Shown here in pieces: positions 3,322 to 51,909 of a stretch of 64,000 nt of DNA. The translations under genes and the position numbers were made by a program. Positions within the stretch are counted from its first letter, which is position 1. Each line of letters starts with the position of its first letter. The stretch is taken from the IMG/VR virus record IMGVR_UViG_3300031703_000599, positions 1 through 64,000 of that record. One strand, 5' to 3'. Source of the stretch: a virus. A model generated the notes under the pieces. That model made no database searches, was not told the DNA's origin, and saw only the letters and a program-made list of their open reading frames with translations.

Positions 3322-3764
3322 AGACAATATTAACAACATTTGCAATTGTAGCACTGGCTTTAGCGGCTACTTGCACGTATGCAAAAGAACCAGTAATGGT
3401 TGAATATGATTATGAAATTACACGAGTTATAGACGGCGACACAGTTGCATTTAGGGCAGACTTTTTACCTGATCCGATTAAGAAAGAACTAAGTATTCGC
3501 GTATACGGTGTAGATACTCCAGAAAAGAGTTGGCGAGCAGAATGTGACCAAGAAGCAATATGGGGAGCAGAAGCAAGTAAATTTACAACGAACATGATTG
3601 CAAGTGCTCACACTATTAAAGTTGCTATTTACAAATGGGACAAGTATGGTGGACGTGTACTAGGTGACATTATCATTGATGGTATCAGCTTACGACAGCT
3701 ATTGCTTGGTAATGGATTTGCTCGTGAATACTATGGCGACAAAAAAGAGTCATGGTGCAATTAA
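3318..3764 (+). CDS. thermonuclease (staphylococcal nuclease-like), with signal peptide
   Basis: RVIDGDT, IRVYGVDTPE and DKYGGRVLG motifs; hydrophobic N-terminus. Confidence 0.9.
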   Translation: MKTILTTFAIVALALAATCTYAKEPVMVEYDYEITRVIDGDTVAFRADFLPDPIKKELSIRVYGVDTPEKSWRAECDQEAIWGAEASKFTTNMIASAHTIKVAIYKWDKYGGRVLGDIIIDGISLRQLLLGNGFAREYYGDKKESWCN

Positions 3765-3765
3765 A

Positions 3766-4950
3766 TTGACTGAGAATAAAGGCTTTTGTATACTACCATT
3801 CACTGGTGTCTTTATACAAAATAACAGAATTAGATTATGCTGTGAAAGTAAAGAAGATACTAAGCATTATCTCTCAGGTGATTCTAGTATTTCTGATATA
3901 TGGAATAACCAGTTTTATCAAGATACTAGGACAGAAATGCTTGCTGGCAATTTGCCAGCAGGATGTAGTACGTGCAGAATGGACGAAGCAGCAGGCGAAG
4001 AAAGCATGCGACTGTGGGAAAACTCACAAATTGATAACATTGATGAATACACTGATATAATATGTGCAGCACCTAGTGGGTTTGATGTACGCCCGACTAA
4101 TAAATGTAACCTTGAATGTGTAATGTGTGACGGTGGCGCCAGTACCGCTATTAATAGTAGACTTGTATACCACAATAAAGATGTAACCGGATTTCCCATA
4201 CAAGCAGGCAAAGTATGGGAAGAAAATCGTTTTGTTATTAACCATATTCAACAAAACAGTGATAAGATTACTACAATGAGGTTCGCAGGTGGTGAACCAT
4301 TCTTGATGCCAGAAGTATTAGAAATTATCGATTACTTAGTGAGCACAGGCGAAAGTAAAAACATTAAATTAAGATTCACCACAAACGGCACTGTGGTACG
4401 CAATAAATGGTTCAGTGAGAAATTAGTAAAATTTAAAAGCGTGAAGTTGAATGTAAGCATTGACGCCATTGGTGAGATCGGAGAATACGTAAGGTACCCT
4501 TGTAAGTGGAGTGTAGTGGATAAAAATATGCAGCTCTTTAAGAAAATTGCAAAAAACAATCCACATATAACGATAAGCCTAGCGCCTGTTATACACGTAC
4601 TAACTGCACTAGATATGGATAAAGTAATTGAGTATGCTGCAATTAACAAAATTGATTTAGCATTGACTCCAGTGTATGCTGCTGCCGGCGGCGGGAATCA
4701 TTTATCAACTGAATTATTAACTGACGAACTGAAACAACTTGCATATGATAAAATAATGAATGTGCTTGCACGTTATCCTAATATGGATTTTAACATAGGC
4801 AAAAAGTTTATTACACAACTATTAAGTACGCCACAACTAACTGACGCAACTACAATACAGCAACTTAATAAAGTTATAAGGTATTGGGATAGTCATAGAA
4901 AAGTTAAGTTTTTAGAACAGTACCCATATCTAGATTACTTAATAGAATAA
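3766..4950 (+). CDS. N-terminal twitch-domain radical SAM protein
   Basis: CILPF...CC...CSTC, then CNLECVMC and GGEPF; TTG start at 3766 preferred over the overlapping 3664 start. Confidence 0.9.
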   Translation: MTENKGFCILPFTGVFIQNNRIRLCCESKEDTKHYLSGDSSISDIWNNQFYQDTRTEMLAGNLPAGCSTCRMDEAAGEESMRLWENSQIDNIDEYTDIICAAPSGFDVRPTNKCNLECVMCDGGASTAINSRLVYHNKDVTGFPIQAGKVWEENRFVINHIQQNSDKITTMRFAGGEPFLMPEVLEIIDYLVSTGESKNIKLRFTTNGTVVRNKWFSEKLVKFKSVKLNVSIDAIGEIGEYVRYPCKWSVVDKNMQLFKKIAKNNPHITISLAPVIHVLTALDMDKVIEYAAINKIDLALTPVYAAAGGGNHLSTELLTDELKQLAYDKIMNVLARYPNMDFNIGKKFITQLLSTPQLTDATTIQQLNKVIRYWDSHRKVKFLEQYPYLDYLIE

Positions 4951-25171: not shown

Positions 25172-26434
25172 TCACAGATGGTTTTTAATTCGTTTAAATT
25201 CAGGCGACACAGACATAACATCGTGTCCTCTGAATATATCGTAGTTTTCAGTAGTACTAACATACTGTTTCATTATTTCTGCATTGTATGTATGATCTGG
25301 ATCTTTTCCAAATTGTACCATTTCCATTAGCGGTTCTTCGTAGTCCGTAAAGTGTGGGCTGTTACGTATACTTTCTAAGAATTCTAAGACTTGTGCTTCT
25401 TGTTCATCTCTTAACCATTGTGGACTGTGTGCCATGCTATAATAATGTGGTTCAATTAGTTGGTTAGTACTCATGCCAATGCCCTTGCTTACTGTACACT
25501 GATAGTCGTGCATAAACTTCCAAAAGGGTACAATATGCAATGCATTAGTCATTTGATTTACTGTAGTAACACGTACTTTAATACGCTTACCGGCCTTGGT
25601 GTTACTGAATTTAACTAATTTGTCAAAGTTTTTCCATACAGATGCCCACTTAGAAGGAGGACGCAGATAGTCATTCATTTCAAACATTCCCTCAAGTGAA
25701 CAATTGACAATCACTTTTTCGAACTTACCAAGCTGCTCTAGCCAACGATCTTGCATATTGGTAATATTAGTATAAAAACTTAGTTCGATGTGACTAGCGT
25801 GTCCGGAGTCTACTGCTATATCAAGCAGTCTAAACATATCCCTTGCTACTGTTGGCTCCCCGCCTATTAGTTTAATTTTACGAGCTTTTCCCATCATTTC
25901 CTCGAAGCTCGTCCAGTCAATTCCAGGTTGAAGAAGAGCCTGCTTCTTGTCTGCAATCATGCCTTGCCAATCCGGGTGGTCGGTCCCGAGTCCGCTTTCG
26001 ACCATTAGTGCTCGTTCCACGCTGACTAAGTGCGAAGCTTCTTTGTTGCACATTTGACATTGTAAATTGCATAGATTGCCAAGCCTGAAATCAAATTGTA
26101 AAGGTTGTTCAACCTCCCAATCGTTAACGGAAGCATCAGCCACTACTTCGTCAATTACATCTTCCCATACCTCGTTTTCCCACTGTCGAGAGCTTACAAT
26201 ATTATTACGTTCTAAGTGTAAGCACTCTGAACATTCGGGCAGCCACTCTCCATTGCTCATGCGTTCACGTACATCCTTGATGTAGTCATGATTCCATGTA
26301 CCATCTATGCCTAGTTTTTCCTGGTCAACTAGTGTTTCTGGTTCTTTAGCCATACAACATAATCTATAACGTCCGCCGTTGTATGTGCTATATTGTACAA
26401 ATGGTAACGCGCAAAAGCCGCCTTTTTCGCTCAT
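25172..26434 (-). CDS. N-terminal twitch-domain radical SAM protein
   Basis: CALPF...LCC...CSEC; CNLQCQMC; IGGEPT. Confidence 0.92.
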   Translation of the reverse strand: MSEKGGFCALPFVQYSTYNGGRYRLCCMAKEPETLVDQEKLGIDGTWNHDYIKDVRERMSNGEWLPECSECLHLERNNIVSSRQWENEVWEDVIDEVVADASVNDWEVEQPLQFDFRLGNLCNLQCQMCNKEASHLVSVERALMVESGLGTDHPDWQGMIADKKQALLQPGIDWTSFEEMMGKARKIKLIGGEPTVARDMFRLLDIAVDSGHASHIELSFYTNITNMQDRWLEQLGKFEKVIVNCSLEGMFEMNDYLRPPSKWASVWKNFDKLVKFSNTKAGKRIKVRVTTVNQMTNALHIVPFWKFMHDYQCTVSKGIGMSTNQLIEPHYYSMAHSPQWLRDEQEAQVLEFLESIRNSPHFTDYEEPLMEMVQFGKDPDHTYNAEIMKQYVSTTENYDIFRGHDVMSVSPEFKRIKNHL

Positions 26435-26437
26435 CAG

Positions 26438-26983
26438 TTAGTATTCCTTTAACAAGTTAAGAAATAATTCTGCGCCTGCTGCTTGGTTCTCTTCCCAAGT
26501 GTGTGATGCATTCTCATCTGCCATATCGCTACCATACTTTAATAGCGTTACTGGTTTATTAAAATGCTTCGCTACTTTAGCAATTGCATAACCTTCCATG
26601 TCAACTAGGTCACTTGGCAGTTCTGGTGGACTCATAACAAAGTTATCGCCTGTGCTTAGTACGATGCCTGTATCTGATAATCCAATTTCTGCTGCCCAAT
26701 CACTTTTGTCAAATGGTGTCGTTCCTAGTTCAGCTTGTGGACGTGCATCCATGTCACGTTGTATAACTGATCCAATTGTATTAAGTTTGCCTGCATACTC
26801 TGCACTTAATACACCTGCTGTTCCAAAATTGATAACTGAATCACAATCTTGTTGTATACAAGCAAGTGCAGCATATGTAGTTGCGTTAATTTTACCAACG
26901 CCAGTGAACCATACTTTATATGTTGCTGGATCTAAATTATGATCAGGTAGCTCACCTGCTAATGCAACTAGTACATAAATCAT
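26438..26983 (-). CDS. mtnN: 5'-methylthioadenosine/S-adenosylhomocysteine nucleosidase
   Basis: TGVGKINA, INFGTAG, STGDNF, DMEGYAIA, SDMAD. Confidence 0.85.
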   Translation of the reverse strand: MIYVLVALAGELPDHNLDPATYKVWFTGVGKINATTYAALACIQQDCDSVINFGTAGVLSAEYAGKLNTIGSVIQRDMDARPQAELGTTPFDKSDWAAEIGLSDTGIVLSTGDNFVMSPPELPSDLVDMEGYAIAKVAKHFNKPVTLLKYGSDMADENASHTWEENQAAGAELFLNLLKEY

Positions 26984-28425
26984 TCAACTGCTCCGTCTTC
27001 TGGTTCGTCTAGTAAATAGCCCATGTCAGGGAATGTAGCACGGAAATCAGTTCCACGCATGTCGTCTAGTTTATTGATGTACTCTCTAAACTCAGGTAAA
27101 CGTTGTGTCCAATCTTCACTGCGAGCAAAGTTAACCATTCCTCGTAATCGCTTAATACCATATTCTGCATTTAGCCATTGCTCTTTTGTTACCTTACCCT
27201 TGTGCCAACTTGGAACACCTAGTTCCCAATTCTCTGTCCACCATTCAATGAACTCTTCGTACTTGGCTTCTGTTTTATCAAGGAATTCATCTGGTAATAC
27301 CTTAACATTCAAATGACCAGGCCAATAAACAAAGTGATAGTTAATACCACCTGCTCCAAATGGCCACATGTTTGTCTTCTTTAGTCCGCTTTGTGTTAGC
27401 TTCCATTTAAGGAAGTCTGGAATATAGTGAATGTTAAGTGCATTAACTGCACAAGCTATTGTAACCTCTACGTTGTTTGATGTCTCTTTGTCTAGACGTT
27501 CAAACATTGCTAGCTGATGTGACCATTCGCTTGGGTAACGAATATAATCATTCATGTCACCAATGCTGTCAATGCTGTAATGGAAACGAACCTTCTTAAA
27601 GTGTTTCCATTGCTCTAGTAAACGATCTGGTAGTTCAATGCCGTTACTGTTATAGCGTAATTCAATACCTTCTGCGTATCCCATTTCAATAACTTTATCT
27701 AAGATATCATAATGTTCTTCAATGACAGTTGATTCGCCACCTGCAAAATACAACTGACGCATATGTGGAATTTGTGCATAGAATTGATCCCAAAATGTAG
27801 GATTGTTCTTGTGCCAGTTATAACTAGCGCCGAACGTTTTTCCTTTCTCATCCCATGACATTGTTTGTTTTAGACTTTCATTTGTAATTTGTGGATATAG
27901 TTTATTCCAATCCTTTACCCATCCACTTGAGTCATGTGGGCTACACATAATACAGCCTAGCTGGCACTTTGTTCCCATGCGAATGTCAATATATCGCAAT
28001 TTTGAATCAGTTGATCCATCTGCGTATGTTTGTTCTACTAATTCATCAACGTCAATTCCGTTGTTCATCCAGTATTGTGTTTCCCATTGGCGTTTAGATC
28101 TATGTCCAGCAGCTTCTTCTTTAAAACATTTTAGACAACTAGCAGGCTGTTCACCTGCAAGCATTTGCTGCCTAACGTTACGCATGTATGTATTATTCCA
28201 TGCTGTTTCCAAATCTGTTGTGTTTAAGTTAGCTGGCTTACCATCTTCTGTTTTTACAATACCTACTCGTCCGCCGTGAACTTTGTCGTTTGTTGCGCCT
28301 ACGCTTGATGCGTTAGCTGTGCAACATACTCGCATACTTCCATCTGGGCGTGTGCTTAAATGAATCCACGGAAGAATACAAAATGTATCTGATGGAGTTG
28401 GTAAATCATGTTCGTTATTTGACAT
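26980..28425 (-). CDS. N-terminal twitch-domain radical SAM protein
   Basis: CILPW...VCC...CLKC; CQLGCIMC; AGGES. Confidence 0.92.
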   Translation of the reverse strand: MSNNEHDLPTPSDTFCILPWIHLSTRPDGSMRVCCTANASSVGATNDKVHGGRVGIVKTEDGKPANLNTTDLETAWNNTYMRNVRQQMLAGEQPASCLKCFKEEAAGHRSKRQWETQYWMNNGIDVDELVEQTYADGSTDSKLRYIDIRMGTKCQLGCIMCSPHDSSGWVKDWNKLYPQITNESLKQTMSWDEKGKTFGASYNWHKNNPTFWDQFYAQIPHMRQLYFAGGESTVIEEHYDILDKVIEMGYAEGIELRYNSNGIELPDRLLEQWKHFKKVRFHYSIDSIGDMNDYIRYPSEWSHQLAMFERLDKETSNNVEVTIACAVNALNIHYIPDFLKWKLTQSGLKKTNMWPFGAGGINYHFVYWPGHLNVKVLPDEFLDKTEAKYEEFIEWWTENWELGVPSWHKGKVTKEQWLNAEYGIKRLRGMVNFARSEDWTQRLPEFREYINKLDDMRGTDFRATFPDMGYLLDEPEDGAVE

Positions 28426-36419: not shown

Positions 36420-37193
36420 TTATTTAGTGCTATTTATAATATTTGGTTCTACTTCAAAATATTTGTTCACTTCAAATTCATCGTTTAAATCATCTGGCGC
36501 ATAACCTCTTGGATTACACAACACTCGTGTTTGATCAACAACATAATCGCTACTGTTATGCATGTGACCATGAACCCAGAATGATGGCTTAAATGTCATC
36601 ATAAACGCGGTTCTATCGCTGTAATATGACGCATTCAATAGTTGCCCTTTGAAACATTCATGACTTGAATTCTCATGTGGCGCATGGTGAGTAATAACTA
36701 CATCACCTTCTTTCACATTGTTATTCATATATGCCATTGTTCTCATATGCTCGTATGCGGCATCAGTAGGTCTAAATTTACGAAAATCTGGACCCATACG
36801 GATATACTTGTGGTCACTCATCTTCTGGCTAGCATCCCACATTGCTAATGGTTGATTACCAGATGATTGATAATCAGTCCACAATGTAGCGCCGTGAAAC
36901 ACAACACCTTTGATCTTGCGCCACTCGTTCTGTAACACATGGACATTCTCATACACATCTTCTTTAATATGTTTTAATGTGTTTTCAATATGCCCACGAT
37001 AGAATTCATGGTTGCCTTGAATCAATATAACATCTTCATACCGCAATGCCATTTCGTTGACCCAATCAATTCGGTGCTTCACGTTAATGTCGCCAGCAAG
37101 AATCAATACATCTGCTTCAACAGTTGGTTCTTCAGTCATACGACCAAACTCCAAGTGTAGGTCAGACATGTATAGACACTTTACTTTGCTCAT
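36420..37193 (-). CDS. calcineurin-like metallophosphoesterase
   Basis: SDLHLE, LAGDI, GNHE, THHAP, HGHMH. Confidence 0.92.
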   Translation of the reverse strand: MSKVKCLYMSDLHLEFGRMTEEPTVEADVLILAGDINVKHRIDWVNEMALRYEDVILIQGNHEFYRGHIENTLKHIKEDVYENVHVLQNEWRKIKGVVFHGATLWTDYQSSGNQPLAMWDASQKMSDHKYIRMGPDFRKFRPTDAAYEHMRTMAYMNNNVKEGDVVITHHAPHENSSHECFKGQLLNASYYSDRTAFMMTFKPSFWVHGHMHNSSDYVVDQTRVLCNPRGYAPDDLNDEFEVNKYFEVEPNIINSTK

Positions 37194-39906: not shown

Positions 39907-39979
39907 TTATCTCGATAGGAGTTGAACCTATGTACACAAGCCATACCCTGTGATCTAGCACTATATTGCTACGAGATAA
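39907..39979 (-). ncRNA. tRNA-like RNA A (no canonical anticodon loop, no encoded CCA)
   Basis: acceptor TTATCTCG/CGAGATAA, D-arm, T-arm ATAGG-TTCAACT-CCTAT, aberrant anticodon arm CACAGG-GTATGG-CTTGTG. Confidence 0.65.
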
Positions 39980-39982
39980 AAC

Positions 39983-40057
39983 TGGAGCGGGTGGACGGAA
40001 TCGAACCGACATCTAAAGGTTGGAAACCTCCAGTAATAACCATTATACTACACCCGC
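39983..40057 (-). tRNA. tRNA-Gly(TCC)
   Basis: GCGGGTG acceptor, TCC anticodon, GGTTCGATTCC T-arm, encoded CCA. Confidence 0.93.
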
Positions 40058-40065
40058 AAAACTAA

Positions 40066-40166
40066 TTTGACCCTTAACAGTTGCTCCATCTGAGAAGATG
40101 TTTTATCGGTTCTACCAGCAACTTAATATTAAGTGAGTTGTCTCGGTTACTCTCACAAGGGTCAAA
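40066..40166 (-). ncRNA. unknown structured RNA (~100 nt)
   Basis: 10-bp terminal stem TTTGACCCTT/AAGGGTCAAA enclosing GTGAG/CTCAC and AGTTGCT/AGCAACT helices; strand inferred from the array. Confidence 0.6.
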
Positions 40167-40170
40167 ACTT

Positions 40171-40243
40171 TGGTGTTCGATGAAGATTTAATTCTCCGTT
40201 TCTGACTTATCAGTGTCAGCGTTCTCTCTTGAACTATTCGAAC
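40171..40243 (-). tRNA. atypical tRNA-Ile(GAT)-like gene with 8-nt anticodon loop and degenerate T-loop
   Basis: GTTCGA/TCGAAC-ACCA, D-arm GTTC/GAAC, CTGAC-ACTGATAA-GTCAG. Confidence 0.6.
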
Positions 40244-40251
40244 AAAACTAA

Positions 40252-40356
40252 TTATCTCGGTAGGATTCTAACCTACATGCATGAAAACATCATCAGCGTA
40301 GCCCGGTCAATGGGGTGGCTGGATTTCACTGCTTTAACCTTTAAGCAACGAGATAA
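40252..40356 (-). ncRNA. tRNA-like RNA B with expanded (~37 nt) anticodon loop
   Basis: same acceptor stem as RNA A; D-arm GCTT/AAGC; GTGAAA/TTTCAT stem; T-arm GTAGG-TTAGAAT-CCTAC. Confidence 0.65.
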
Positions 40357-40358
40357 AC

Positions 40359-40444
40359 TGGCGGAAAACTAAGGAATCGAACCTTAACCCTTTCGAGTCC
40401 ACGCGGTTAGCAACCGGCCCTAGATCCAATCTAGATAATCTTCC
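40359..40444 (-). tRNA. tRNA-Ser(GCT)
   Basis: GCT anticodon, long variable arm, GGTTCGATTCC, encoded CCA. Confidence 0.9.
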
Positions 40445-40449
40445 AAACG

Positions 40450-40652
40450 TGGTCCCGCACCGCCCTTTCAAAGCGACTTAACTATGACAGGTTTACTAGG
40501 TTTATACTAACGATCAACTGGTTAGGAATACGCTTCATATCATTGGGCGATTCTGATCTGTGTTCATTGAGCGACCAAGCACAACTACTAACTTCACTAT
40601 CTACCCATCCCTAGCATTTACCAGAGAGATCATACTCAAGTGGTCATGCGAG
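40450..40652 (-). ncRNA. unknown ~200-nt RNA with acceptor-like stem and 3' ACCA
   Basis: CTCGCA/TGCGGG-ACCA termini, hairpin at T-arm position, ATGAC/GTCAT closing a large internal domain. Confidence 0.55.
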
Positions 40653-40659
40653 TTAAAAA

Positions 40660-40735
40660 TGGCTCCTGAAGTTGGGCTCGAACCAACGACAAATAGATTA
40701 ACAGTCTACTACTCTACCAACTGAGCTATTCAGGA
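40660..40735 (-). tRNA. tRNA-Asn(GTT)
   Basis: TCCTGAA acceptor, CTGTTAA loop, GGTTCGAGCCC, encoded CCA. Confidence 0.95.
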
Positions 40736-40747
40736 ATTAAACTTCAC

Positions 40748-40892
40748 TTTCAACTATGCTGGGTAGTATAGTCTACTTACAAACGTGACTAACCATTTGC
40801 ATTGGTAGACTAGGGACTATGTAATGTCCTAAAGCATTCAACGAGTGTCACTCGCTTACTGGCTTAAGGAATCGTCCCAGCATATGTGAAAA
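40748..40892 (-). ncRNA. unknown multi-helix structured RNA (~145 nt)
   Basis: closing stem TATGCTGGG/CCCAGCATA with internal TAGTCTAC/GTAGACTA, GGAC/GTCC and CGAGT/ACTCG helices. Confidence 0.55.
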
Positions 40893-41630: not shown

Positions 41631-41699
41631 ATGCTTCTCTCCTTACCCTAATTTGTAATACTATTATAGCATTTCTAGTTAGGATATGTCAACCTTTTA

Positions 41700-43326: not shown

Positions 43327-43650
43327 TTATAGTTTAAATTCTAATCCAAAAACAACGCCAATATTATTACGTTCCAGTGCTGGTGCAACGAAGTAATTCT
43401 TGTATGTTATTCGTGTGTATGGGATAACGTCTGCAACTGTATAGCCGCCTGCTAATGCAAGTTCAAACCCCCAGTCGCCGTATTCGTGCCGATAGCCAGT
43501 GTATGGGCTTATACGTTCTTCACTGTTGTAGTATAGGCCAGTGATGTAATTATCCTGTGTGTAGCGAATGTGTGGATGAAGTTCATTGTATTCGCTTGCA
43601 AGTCCAAGGTGTAGACTTACTCCTAATGTTAGTACAAGTGCTCCGTTCAA
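43327..43650 (-). CDS. small beta-barrel outer-membrane-like protein (PagP-like pattern)
   Basis: amphipathic aromatic strands, YNELHP, YYNS..R.S.Y.GY, ends FGLEFKL. Confidence 0.55.
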   Translation of the reverse strand: MNGALVLTLGVSLHLGLASEYNELHPHIRYTQDNYITGLYYNSEERISPYTGYRHEYGDWGFELALAGGYTVADVIPYTRITYKNYFVAPALERNNIGVVFGLEFKL

Positions 43651-44345
43651 CTGTTAGGCGTGCCAGTCTTGTTATCTTGCAGCCATTTAATAGCAAATCT
43701 ATTAGTAGGTGGACTAGTTATAAATGCACGTATTAATTTTTCCACGTTATCAAAGTTTTGCTTGCGAGCAGGGTCTTCTAAGCCGCCGCTGTTGTCCACG
43801 ATATGGAAGTTGCTGGCGCCAAATACTTGTTGAAATTTCATGATATTGCTCTGCACCGCGTTCCACATTTTAGAAACCATTTCAGTTGGGAGCTTTCTAG
43901 GACGTTGTAAGTTACGTGCTTGTGCAACTTCAAGGTCAGTATTAACAAATAACATCATTGTACTGTAGCCTAGTTTTCTTAGATCATCAGATGCTTTTTT
44001 TACTTTGTCTGTATTCTTGCCTGTGCCATCAATTATAATACCTAGTCGGCCACTAAGGTATGCGTTCTCACGATGAGATGTAAGTTTTTTTGCACGGTCT
44101 CTAATTTCTTGGCCTTCTGGACTTGCAACAGCATCAGGGTCGCCTAAATCCAATTCTTGTTTATGCGCCATGTATTCATATATGTCATCACTGTTAATGG
44201 CTTTCAATCCATACCCAGATAATAGTCCTTTTGATACATAGCTTTTGCCGCTGCCTGGGCCGCCAGCTAGGAAGACTGCTTTAAATATGTGCTTATCATG
44301 TGGTCCTTCTGCTAAATTCTGTTCTGTGATTTGATGTATTTTCAT
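43647..44345 (-). CDS. zeta-toxin-like P-loop kinase
   Basis: FLAGGPGSGKS, INSD, IIDGTG, AQARN..R.R. Confidence 0.8.
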   Translation of the reverse strand: MKIHQITEQNLAEGPHDKHIFKAVFLAGGPGSGKSYVSKGLLSGYGLKAINSDDIYEYMAHKQELDLGDPDAVASPEGQEIRDRAKKLTSHRENAYLSGRLGIIIDGTGKNTDKVKKASDDLRKLGYSTMMLFVNTDLEVAQARNLQRPRKLPTEMVSKMWNAVQSNIMKFQQVFGASNFHIVDNSGGLEDPARKQNFDNVEKLIRAFITSPPTNRFAIKWLQDNKTGTPNS

Positions 44346-45168: not shown

Positions 45169-45214
45169 CCGGTTAGTCTAAAATAGTTGAATTTTATATA
45201 TGATAAATAAATGT

Positions 45215-45844
45215 ATGGATAATAGATATGATTTTGAATTTAGTGTGACAAGTTTTTGTCAGGCTAAATGCAGGAGCTGTAGCCGGTTTGATGATGATGG
45301 CGAATTAATAAAAGGGTTAGTGCCTGCTCACGTGCCAATAGAACGATTCAAACAATCAGTTAATAACTTAGAGGGTGTGCATGTTGGGCAAATTATATTA
45401 TGCGGCGAGCATGGTGATCCTATGATGCATCCAAAAATTGGTGAAATCATTGAGTACGCAAGCAAGAACCATATTGTGAATATAATGACAAATGGTGGAT
45501 TGCGTAATCCTGCATTTTATGAGAAATTAGCAAAGAACAAGAGGGTGGCAATAAGTTGGGGAATTGATGGATTAGATCATGATACTAATTGGAAATACAG
45601 GGAAGGTGTTGATTTTAATCGTGCATGGGATAATATGACTACTTGGTTTAAGCATACAACAATGGGGCGATGGGAGTTCTTAATATTTGAATGGAATTAT
45701 CACCAGATACAAGATGTATATAATACAGCCAAGAAATTAGGTATACAAATAGAATTTAAACTAAACACTAGACAGTGGGGCTATCTCCAATCACCCAAGC
45801 GCGAAGAAGTAATCGAACAGCTTAAACATCTACACAAGGGTTAA
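45215..45844 (+). CDS. radical SAM core without SPASM domain
   Basis: CQAKCRSC, GEHGDPMMHP, TNGGLR, GIDGL; ATAAATA-N5-ATG start. Confidence 0.88.
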   Translation: MDNRYDFEFSVTSFCQAKCRSCSRFDDDGELIKGLVPAHVPIERFKQSVNNLEGVHVGQIILCGEHGDPMMHPKIGEIIEYASKNHIVNIMTNGGLRNPAFYEKLAKNKRVAISWGIDGLDHDTNWKYREGVDFNRAWDNMTTWFKHTTMGRWEFLIFEWNYHQIQDVYNTAKKLGIQIEFKLNTRQWGYLQSPKREEVIEQLKHLHKG

Positions 45845-45848
45845 TAAA

Positions 45849-46541
45849 ATGATATACACACACAGTGACATTGACTCAATTAAGACTGAGATTGAAATAA
45901 CTACATATTGCAATGCACGGTGCAAGAGGTGTCCTCGAACTAATCCAGAAACTGGTGCGGCAATTGACTGGTTAGTACAAGAGCACATGTCGCTTGATAC
46001 ATTTAAAATGATTTTTAATAACCAAAATGCTGCATCTAATAAATTACGACATGTTAAACTATGTGGTCAATACGGCGATCCTATGATGCATCCGCATATT
46101 AATGAGATTATTGAATATACATTAGAAGATAAAAATGTATCAATGCTTATAAACACAAACGGTGGTCTCAGAAATGCAAGTTGGTATAAATCCATTGCTG
46201 AAAAATACGGCAGAAGAATTTATATAATATTTGGCATTGATGGACTGGACCATGAGACTAACTGGAAGTACAGAGAAGGTGTGATGTTCGATAAAGCGTA
46301 TGCTAATATGGTGAGTTATCAGCAAAGCGGAGGTGAAACCTCTTGGCAATTTATAGTGTTTAGCTGGAATGTACATCAAATAGAAGATGTACATAAGCAA
46401 GCAACCGAACTCGGCGTAGAGTTGACATATATTGTTGATCTGGAGTACGGACAAGAATTACGTATACAATCTGATTATAAAATAGAAGAATTAAAGCAGA
46501 GATTTTCAAACTTGGGAGTGGATAATTATCAAGGCATCTAA
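45849..46541 (+). CDS. radical SAM core without SPASM domain
   Basis: CNARCKRC, GQYGDPMMHP, TNGGLR, GIDGL. Confidence 0.88.
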   Translation: MIYTHSDIDSIKTEIEITTYCNARCKRCPRTNPETGAAIDWLVQEHMSLDTFKMIFNNQNAASNKLRHVKLCGQYGDPMMHPHINEIIEYTLEDKNVSMLINTNGGLRNASWYKSIAEKYGRRIYIIFGIDGLDHETNWKYREGVMFDKAYANMVSYQQSGGETSWQFIVFSWNVHQIEDVHKQATELGVELTYIVDLEYGQELRIQSDYKIEELKQRFSNLGVDNYQGI

Positions 46542-50551: not shown

Positions 50552-50821
50552 TTACTCTACTAGATCTTGTGAAATCTGGCCGCATAGTGTAGTAAACCAC
50601 AAGTCAACAATTTCTTCTTCATTGTCGCCCGTGTATCCTGCTTCTAGTAATTGACGTACAAACAATTGGTTCCACTCGAGTTCAAAGTATCCATCGCTTG
50701 GATTCTCTTGGTCGAAGTTAAAATTTAATACATTAACAAATGGTTCGCCACGTGCTGTAGCTTTGTCCTTTTCACTTACCTTTTCTTTTCGTGTAAATAA
50801 CTTCTTTATTCTACTAAACAT
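50552..50821 (-). CDS. conserved jumbo-phage hypothetical protein
   Basis: GEPFV...GYFELEWN..FV..L..AGY; start at MFSRIKK. Confidence 0.7.
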   Translation of the reverse strand: MFSRIKKLFTRKEKVSEKDKATARGEPFVNVLNFNFDQENPSDGYFELEWNQLFVRQLLEAGYTGDNEEEIVDLWFTTLCGQISQDLVE

Positions 50822-51909
50822 TAAATTCCCCATCCAATCTTTTCCCATGGAACATCTTTGTTGCCAAAGTGTCCATACGTACAATGTGTACTGTATTCAT
50901 GGAAGTTAAATAAGTCAAATCTATCAATTATGCCTTTAGGTGTTAGGTCAATGTTTTTACGGATAAACGCCTCTATGCTTTTACTGTATCCATTTGATTC
51001 AACATAGATACTAGTAGGCTCTTTAATGCCGATTGCATAGCTTAACTGTATGTTACACCAATCTGCCATGTTGTCTGCTACTATGTTCTTTGCTAACCAA
51101 CGTGCCATATACGCTGCACTACGATCTACTTTCGTAGGGTCTTTTCCAGAAAAAGCGCCACCGCCGTGAGGGGCATAACCACCGTAAGTATCAACGATGA
51201 TCTTGCGGCCAGTAAGTCCAGAGTCGCCATCAGGCCCACCAATAACAAAGTTACCAGTAGGATTAAGATGCCATATTGTTTTATCATCTACTAAATCTCC
51301 TAATACTTCCATTGCTGCTTCGCGACATAATTGCTGTGCAGCTTCCATGTTGCCTTCTGTGTGTTGTGTACTAACAACAACTTGATCTATACGCTTAACC
51401 ACTCCACCTGCGTACTCTACACTAATTTGCGACTTAGCGTCTGGTCCAAGTACTGTACCACGCTTTGTTTTTAAGTGCTTTAATACTTCGTGTGCATAGT
51501 AAATAGGTGCTGGTAAATAAGCATCATTGTCGTTACATGCGTAACCAAACATAATACCTTGATCGCCTGCTCCAAAATCATCTGTGCCTAATGCAATATC
51601 AGCGCTCTGTGAATGAATCTCATTGTAGATTTTTAATTTATCCCAATGGAATCCATCTTGCTCGTATCCAATTTCTTTAACTTTAGCGCGGATAATTGCT
51701 TCAACTTCATCTCTTGACACGTTGAAGTTTTTTACTTCGCCTGCTACCGTTACGTGGTTAGTAGTTACAAGAGTTTCAACAGCAACACGAGTAGTTTCAT
51801 CGCCTGCTTTAAATCCAGCATCCACTAGTGCGTCACTAATTTGATCAGCAATTTTATCTGGATGTCCGTCTGAAACACTCTCGCTTGTAAAAATGTAATT
51901 CTGGTTCAT
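50821..51909 (-). CDS. metK: S-adenosylmethionine synthetase
   Basis: FTSESVSDGHPDK, GAGDQG, GLTGRKIIVDTYGG, GGGAFSGKDPTKVDRS. Confidence 0.97.
   Translation of the reverse strand: MNQNYIFTSESVSDGHPDKIADQISDALVDAGFKAGDETTRVAVETLVTTNHVTVAGEVKNFNVSRDEVEAIIRAKVKEIGYEQDGFHWDKLKIYNEIHSQSADIALGTDDFGAGDQGIMFGYACNDNDAYLPAPIYYAHEVLKHLKTKRGTVLGPDAKSQISVEYAGGVVKRIDQVVVSTQHTEGNMEAAQQLCREAAMEVLGDLVDDKTIWHLNPTGNFVIGGPDGDSGLTGRKIIVDTYGGYAPHGGGAFSGKDPTKVDRSAAYMARWLAKNIVADNMADWCNIQLSYAIGIKEPTSIYVESNGYSKSIEAFIRKNIDLTPKGIIDRFDLFNFHEYSTHCTYGHFGNKDVPWEKIGWGI

Follow-up and report, generated by a model that had tools for sequence, protein, structure and literature searches.

Two paralogous tRNA-shaped elements with rebuilt anticodon arms in the tRNA array of an uncultured jumbo phage

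What kind of RNA has the shape of a transfer RNA (tRNA) and no anticodon loop? The question is raised by two elements, here called A (positions 39907-39979) and B (40252-40356), in the tRNA array of a phage represented by the IMG/VR virus record IMGVR_UViG_3300031703_000599. The window, that is, the whole stretch of DNA analyzed, comprised the first 64 kb (64,000 nucleotides, nt) of this 98.6-kb record. The original prediction, made by a model without database searches, had placed two tRNA-shaped elements with identical termini at these positions; both points were borne out by the folds and the alignment, with the correction that the elements are minus-strand genes. Our best explanation, held with about even confidence, is that A and B are retained, processed, non-decoding RNAs that keep the top half of a tRNA, of the same kind as the rnaC and rnaD RNAs of phage T4.

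Element A is a 73-nt non-decoding cloverleaf, delimited by its fold, its list of pairs and a structure descriptor. The acceptor is formed by a 5′ strand at 39978-39972 and a 3′ strand at 39914-39908, with U-1 at 39979 and A73 at 39907. It is followed by a D-like hairpin (UAGCA/UGCUA with the 6-nt loop AUAUAG, 39956-39971), which adjoins the acceptor without a free 8-9 linker and contains no G18G19, by a remodeled "anticodon" hairpin of 6 bp (CACAGG/CUUGUG with the 6-nt loop GUAUGG, 39935-39952), and by a T-arm with a canonical T-loop (AUAGG-UUCAACU-CCUAU, 39915-39931). All 24 stem pairs are standard (8 in the acceptor, 5 in the D-like hairpin, 6 in the "anticodon" hairpin and 5 in the T-stem), and the minimum free energy (MFE) fold was the cloverleaf, with z = -3.5 relative to dinucleotide shuffles. 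The loop of the "anticodon" hairpin had been described as purine-rich, 6 nt long and lacking U33; its length and composition (4 of 6 purines) stand, the absence of U33 is arguable because a U occupies the second position, and the decisive feature is that the loop has 6 nt and not 7.

Element B, delimited in the same way, is a 105-nt non-decoding cloverleaf whose acceptor strands lie at 40355-40349 (5′) and 40259-40253 (3′), with A73 at 40252. The D-arm (GCUU/AAGC with the 8-nt loop AAAGGUUA, 40331-40346) contains A14, G18G19 and A21, and the T-arm (GUAGG-UUAGAAU-CCUAC, 40260-40276) has A instead of C at position 56. In the remodeled central arm (40281-40329), the strands of the stem GUGAAA/UUUCAU enclose 37 nt (40323-40287), exactly the length that had been estimated, and this insert contains the nested CAGC/GCUG and CCC/GGG helices that had been proposed for it, ending in the loop AUUGACC. 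All 23 stem pairs are standard (8 acceptor, 4 D, 6 "anticodon" and 5 T), and the MFE fold was a cloverleaf with z = -2.7 relative to dinucleotide shuffles. The closing stem GUGAAA/UUUCAU was populated at ~10% in the predicted ensemble and lay 1.4 kcal/mol above the MFE. When it was forced, the arm became long and irregular, with AUUGACC as a 7-nt loop at its tip, and in this model the loop would sit far from the ribosomal anticodon site.

Both elements have a 7-bp acceptor stacked on a 5-bp T-stem, a 7-nt T-loop with U54, U55 and A58, and a D-arm. The 5-bp anticodon stem with a 7-nt loop and U33 is absent from both (6 bp and 6 nt in A, 37 nt between the strands in B), and the set of canonical tRNA elbow contacts, G18-U55 and G19-C56, is complete in neither. 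A and B gave no match to the Rfam tRNA model RF00005 (cut-off 29 bits) at the gathering score or at E ≤ 10 in a 1.3-kb search, and no call by ARAGORN at default settings. The acceptor is followed by A-AUU in A and by A-UUA in B, so that CCA is not encoded; five other acceptor-ended units of the array, Asn, Ser, Gly and the Ile-like unit among them, do encode it, a difference that had been read correctly at the outset. With no 7-nt anticodon loop, neither A nor B is a decoding tRNA, in agreement with the proposal of a non-decoding arm on a retained acceptor.

A and B are paralogous. Their termini, UUAUCUCG at the 5′ end and CGAGAUAA at the 3′ end, are identical (8/8 and 8/8, thus 16/16 bases including positions -1 and 73), and this pair of sequences has no other occurrence in the 98.6-kb contig. 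The leader CCAGUUU(U) is common to both elements, each of which begins 3-4 nt after a CCA-ending tRNA (Gly for A, Ser for B), and when all tRNAs of the array and the relatives are compared, A matches B best and B matches A best. Four of the five T-stem pairs are identical. Two pair changes are compensatory: at 49:65, the remaining T-stem pair, A has A-U and B has G-C, and at 12:23 in the D-stem the A-U of A corresponds to U-A in B. The D-loops differ, as do positions 56, 57 and 59 of the T-loop, and the central arms (38 nt in A versus 70 nt in B) could be aligned only with many gaps. The acceptor and T-arm are thus conserved and the anticodon arm has been rebuilt in two ways. Across the 47 stem pairs of the two elements there are no mismatches of the type left by decay, and both elements fold better than shuffled sequences. 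Because the helices and acceptor have been kept and the rest has drifted or been rebuilt, the pattern is that expected from selection on a structured RNA; selection appears to have acted on the helices and the acceptor sequence and not on decoding.

Chance was addressed with two scans. A cloverleaf descriptor (7-bp acceptor, 5-bp T-stem with a TTNNANN loop, and a D-arm) picked out A, B and tRNA-Asn in the array region; in ~600 kb of other phage loci it gave 89 matches, all of them true tRNAs of tRNA length with no odd sizes. A T-arm motif (G53, loop TT[CA][GA]AN[TC], C61 and 5 pairs), counted outside the tRNAs called by ARAGORN, occurred 5 times in ~700 kb of DNA from relatives. In this contig it occurred 3 times, always within the 1-kb array and on the tRNA strand. 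Since the motif is rare in relatives and all three occurrences here fall in the array on the tRNA strand, chance was excluded.

The position of A and B fits genes made together with tRNAs. The array occupies ~1 kb of non-coding DNA (39907-40892) without an open reading frame (ORF) of ≥50 amino acids, except for one spurious frame overlapping tRNA-Asn, and all of its tRNAs as well as A and B lie on the minus strand. The upstream tRNAs both encode CCA: tRNA-Gly(UCC) (39983-40057, minus strand) ends 4 nt (GUUU) before U1 of A, and the tRNA-Ser(GCU)-like unit (40359-40444, minus strand) ends 3 nt (GUU) before U1 of B. A consensus promoter of the sigma-70 type (TTGACA-18-TATAAT, 12/12 matches plus the extended TG; 41663-41692, minus strand) lies ~0.8 kb upstream of the array, precedes three small ORFs and then the array, and is where transcription through A and B probably begins. 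No terminator was predicted 3′ of A. The shared strand, the shared placement after a CCA-ending tRNA and the ORF-free 1 kb downstream of a consensus promoter all speak for retained RNAs. A and B would be made within one polycistronic transcript of the array. The top half of a tRNA is read by RNase P, the 3′-end trimming enzymes and the CCA-adding enzyme; as this half is intact, with an acceptor that can be extended to 8-9 bp, A and B would be cut out in the manner of tRNAs as discrete RNAs of ~72 and 104 nt. Cleavage by RNase P at their 5′ ends would leave tRNA-Gly and tRNA-Ser with a 3-4-nt trailer behind the encoded CCA. In the lower half, other stable helices have taken the place of the decoding arm and, with no 7-nt anticodon loop left, neither RNA can decode. 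After excision they would most likely bind a factor that recognizes the acceptor/T-arm half.

The closest known counterparts are the T4 species 1 and 2 RNAs (rnaC and rnaD), which are likewise small RNAs other than tRNAs that a phage encodes within its tRNA cluster, on the same strand as the tRNAs; they are stable RNAs whose roles are still unexplained (PMC3014915, PMC9697503). In T4, rnaD starts 1 nt after tRNA-Arg and rnaC starts 6 nt after rnaD, at the end of the cluster, comparable with the offsets of 4 nt between Gly and A and 3 nt between Ser and B. There is no anticodon arm in rnaC, and a canonical T-arm (CCGGG-UUCGAAU-CCCGG) adjoins the terminal stem, a design shared with A and B. The T4 RNAs differ in having no sequence similarity to the array (blastn), in being longer (119 and 139 nt) and in not forming a paralogous pair with identical acceptor stems; A and B are full cloverleaves with four arms, and rnaC has neither a clean 7-bp acceptor nor a D-arm. 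The T4 RNAs also stand together at the end of their array; in the array studied here, A comes after one tRNA and B after another. Phage tRNA clusters have carried unexplained non-tRNA RNAs since species 1 and 2 were described, and A and B, both complete cloverleaves, are a cleaner example: between the paralogs, only the acceptor/T-arm half is constant. That the decoding half has been rebuilt in two different ways while this half has stayed constant suggests that the top half is the working part, and A and B (72 and 104 nt) are small substrates that can be synthesized for study of what reads it: RNase P, the CCA-adding enzyme, synthetases and tRNA-targeting defense proteins. Found on a single metagenomic contig and absent from close relatives, they make a well-formed curiosity and do not by themselves demonstrate a new system.

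Other tRNA-like RNAs are more distant. The tRNAOther of Bacillus cereus is tRNA-shaped, non-translational and retained (PMC3399842), and resembles A and B as a tRNA-shaped RNA that is kept outside translation; it is, however, chromosomal, flanks a genomic island and keeps its anticodon arm, whereas A and B are phage-encoded and have rebuilt arms. Phage tRNAs that evade or neutralize tRNA-targeting defenses (PMC10264068, PMC11464382, PMC11555353) also belong to arrays and deviate from the host norm in the anticodon region. These are functional decoders whose 7-nt loop carries point changes; with no usable anticodon loop, A and B cannot replace a cleaved tRNA. The tRNA-like domains of transfer-messenger RNA (tmRNA) and YrlA are further cases of acceptor/T-arm mimicry without a decoding anticodon, and both identities were rejected for A and B. 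No tmRNA was found by ARAGORN or Rfam, and pair 3:70 is U-A in place of G3-U70, the alanine mark. The ends of YrlA RNA lie at the anticodon side and not at the acceptor; A and B gave no match to Rfam RF02553 (YrlA), and no Ro/TROVE domain was found in the 98.6-kb contig, which is ~28% of the genome.

Homologs were sought by sequence pattern, alignment and structure. In IMG/VR, the pair of acceptor words with a 55-85-nt gap gave at least 119 chance matches, with no T-arm or T-loop among the matches listed, and a pattern of T-arm plus acceptor 3′ strand gave one match, an ordinary tRNA-Gln(UUG) with the acceptor UGUCUCG. A two-gap pattern covering both halves gave 12 matches in JGI metagenomes, of which 11 were ordinary tRNAs (acceptor GAUCUCG) and 1 was due to chance, and a pattern of acceptor plus canonical T-loop gave 2 chance matches and no tRNA in 185,579 GTDB species genomes. 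When the whole array was compared with 50,697 phage records (blastn) and with the full records of 29 close relatives (BLAST), tRNA-Asn was the only real match in each case, and A and B were absent; a 29-nt match of the array's leader RNA in relative G018 was rejected as chance, as it lies in coding DNA. A structure-descriptor scan of 692 kb from eight relatives detected no element like A or B. No array was present at the corresponding place in 23 loci with relatives of the flanking C92-peptidase gene or in 10 loci with relatives of the upstream 90-amino acid gene; the closest protein relatives of the flanking gene are P0001 (95% identity) and P0002 (74%).

The main rival explanation is that two related tRNA genes (isoacceptors sharing one acceptor stem, for example) have left A and B behind as neutral pseudo-tRNAs in a fast-turnover array, where they may still be processed, yet without selection; we regard this as a serious possibility, if not the expected one. 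Its main argument is that the arrays of this clade turn over fast and occasionally hold odd tRNA-shaped units. The tRNA complement varies widely among relatives with a 73-90% identical AAA ATPase, A and B are missing from all of these, other array members are degenerate too (the Ile-like and Ser-like units), and another orphan tRNA-like element stands at an array end in relative G014. A and B themselves encode neither CCA nor an anticodon loop, and both have lost the elbow pair. Several observations count against retention of A and B as functional RNAs. The homolog searches suggested with the original prediction found no ortholog in any collection covered (IMG/VR, JGI metagenomes, GTDB genomes, phage records and 29 close relatives), and the close relatives live without A and B on a set of ordinary tRNAs, or even a single tRNA-Asn, so that the clade can dispense with the elements. 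The evidence for conservation and covariation comes from one pair of paralogs, and the compensatory changes could predate the loss of decoding, when A and B were working isoacceptors. An alternative MFE fold of B has no closing stem, and the tRNA-like central stem is not the predicted MFE one. Finally, neither element has an intact elbow pair G19-C56, a contact of help to RNase P and the CCA-adding enzyme, as the D-loop of A has no GG and the T-loop of B has A56; the prediction of intact D- and T-arms therefore holds for the helices, all of whose pairs are standard, and that of a conserved elbow fails. Neutral decay would not, however, be expected to produce the pattern seen in A and B: a tRNA signature eroded so far that the Rfam model misses it at E ≤ 10 should be accompanied by broken pairs, and 0 of the 47 are broken. 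The anticodon arms have been replaced by new, well-paired helices and not eroded, and the acceptor stems and leader have remained identical while the middle has diverged beyond simple alignment.

A more specific function is conceivable but improbable, namely that A and B are dedicated mimics of the tRNA top half, acting as a decoy or sponge for a host defense enzyme that attacks or modifies acceptors or, after CCA addition, as aminoacyl carriers. The phage would then keep one acceptor/T-arm minihelix twice, each time on another scaffold, to occupy a factor reading tRNA acceptor ends, which we likewise consider doubtful; such a factor could be a host defense toxin acting on acceptor stems, or a synthetase/transferase pair that uses the CCA-extended elements as non-ribosomal aminoacyl carriers. 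The conservation of the acceptor/T-arm half alone between the paralogs accords with mimicry, and phage tRNAs are known to counter tRNA-targeting defenses (PMC10264068, PMC11464382, PMC11555353). A calcineurin-like phosphoesterase (36420-37193, minus strand) and a P-loop kinase of the zeta-toxin/polynucleotide kinase (PNK) type (43647-44345, minus strand) flank the array within 4 kb, and jumbo phages use such enzyme types in RNA repair and end-healing (PMC7824862); this is context and not evidence. However, no cellular tRNA gene with the acceptor stem of A and B and a canonical T-loop occurs in the 185,579 GTDB genomes, so there is no obvious target to imitate and no known host tRNA is copied. 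CCA is not encoded, and no CCA-adding enzyme, RNA ligase or Ro/TROVE protein was found on the contig (28% of the genome). A possible link to the enzyme cluster had been suggested; no link to the cluster of radical-SAM (S-adenosylmethionine) enzymes was seen, and no aminoacyl-tRNA-dependent transferase domain was found in the neighbors examined around the array. Known identity marks that act independently of the anticodon (G3-U70, a long variable arm and G-1) are all absent, and A and B are not conserved in relatives. A role of the remodeled arms as antisense RNAs found no backing either, as their complementarity to the contig was at chance level (≤13 nt). Very improbable, and rejected here, is the earlier suggestion of an intron-containing tRNA, by which B (perhaps also A) would be a decoding tRNA with a short spliced intron in the anticodon loop. 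With introns allowed and thresholds lowered, ARAGORN called B as tRNA-Ile(GAU) with a 30-nt intron, and the insert contains CUGAUGA, which resembles the CUGAUAA loop of the next, Ile-like unit; the same run, however, made 157 calls on the 98.6 kb, nearly all of them spurious. To our knowledge, tRNA introns of bacteria and phages are group I ribozymes of hundreds of nt. The insert of B (30-37 nt) is an order of magnitude shorter than a group I intron, and Rfam finds none. There is also no bulge-helix-bulge, the intron motif of archaea, since unpaired bases flank the CAGC/GCUG helix where continuous helices are needed; the predicted insertion point, between positions 32 and 33, is non-canonical; and A has no insert, merely a 6-nt loop. 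Retained top-half RNAs of the rnaC/rnaD kind therefore remain our best explanation.

The remaining members of the array are a mixture of tRNAs and structured RNAs. From 5′ to 3′ on the minus strand, the order is a 145-nt structured RNA, tRNA-Asn, a ~200-nt RNA ending in ACCA, the Ser(GCU)-like unit, B, an Ile-like tRNA with an 8-nt loop, a 100-nt RNA, tRNA-Gly and, last, A. At default settings ARAGORN called only Gly(UCC) and Asn(GUU); Rfam gave tRNA-Gly, tRNA-Asn, one weak tRNA match (32.9 bits) and one sub-threshold match resembling tRNA-Sec. tRNA-Asn(GUU) (40660-40735, minus strand) is the sole array member common to close relatives. In the Ser-like unit, a D-stem of 6 bp carries a loop of 4 nt and the anticodon stem is imperfect; among Rfam models, tRNA-Sec fitted this unit best (30.6 bits versus a cut-off of 47), and it was called by ARAGORN only at relaxed settings. 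The Ile-like tRNA (40171-40243, minus strand), which encodes CCA, accounts for the 32.9-bit Rfam tRNA match and was not called by ARAGORN. Its 8-nt anticodon loop consists of an A added to CUGAUAA, the normal loop of tRNA-Ile(GAU), and it has an A7xA66 mismatch in the acceptor and a poor T-loop (AAUUAAA); it could be frameshift-prone or decaying. Three more structured non-tRNA RNAs lie in the array at 40748-40892, 40450-40652 and 40066-40166 (minus strand). The ~200-nt RNA has an acceptor-like stem and ACCA at its 3′ end, the 100-nt RNA is closed by the 9-bp stem UUGACCCUU/AAGGGUCAA, and an identical 11-nt spacer, AAUUAGUUUUG, follows both B and the 100-nt RNA.

The relatives carry one to twelve ordinary tRNAs. 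Relative G014 has 12, nine of them in the array that contains tRNA-Asn (Thr-Leu-Ala-Asn-Ser-Val-Ile-Gly-Asp) together with Ser-Gln-Glu, and G028 has a similar set of 12 with ORFs in between, of which 8 are in the Asn array. At least 3 tRNAs were found in G024, and one or two tRNA-Arg in G007, G027 and G034. In G008 and G032, which are among the closest relatives and whose ATPase is 89% identical, the array in the matching region is reduced to a lone tRNA-Asn and a hairpin terminator (L239:1503-1620 and L240:1200-1317, respectively), ~330 nt upstream of the AAA ATPase gene; the distance from tRNA-Asn to this gene in the window is 6.4 kb. G032 also has 2 tRNA-Arg elsewhere. In G005, Asn, a hairpin, Ser(GCU) and Gly(UCC) follow one another in the order of the window, with A and B absent. 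The idea that A and B are positional orthologs of tRNA-Val and tRNA-Asp in G014, judged from the slots of Asn-Ser-Val-Ile-Gly-Asp, was rejected, as the sequences give it no backing. The orphan element of G014 (86 nt, L295:16803-16888, plus strand) abuts the CCA of tRNA-Glu and was not called by ARAGORN. It has the acceptor UAUCAGU/GCUGAUA, a canonical T-arm nearly identical to that of the window's Ser-like unit, and CCA directly after position 72 with no discriminator base; no counterpart was found in G028 or other relatives.

The phage itself is an uncultured jumbo phage with a genome of roughly 350 kb, as the 98.6 kb of the record correspond to a CheckV completeness of 28%; its GC content is 38.6%. 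The neighbors of the array that could be named are a C92 amidase, the calcineurin-like phosphoesterase, the zeta/PNK-type kinase, the AAA ATPase and radical-SAM enzymes. The AAA ATPase is 47% identical to its homolog in Pseudomonas phage PA5oct, with more distant homologs in Phosso and Atu_ph07, and ~30 uncultured IMG/VR relatives carry the 73-90% identical version. As a separate observation, a homolog of SAM synthetase (MetK), ~50% identical to bacterial and phage MetK, is encoded together with at least 5 radical-SAM genes (MetK/radical-SAM coordinates: 50821-51909, minus strand; 3679-4950, plus strand; 25172-28425, minus strand; 45200-46541, plus strand), and the phage thus seems to supply its own SAM for a large set of radical-SAM enzymes.

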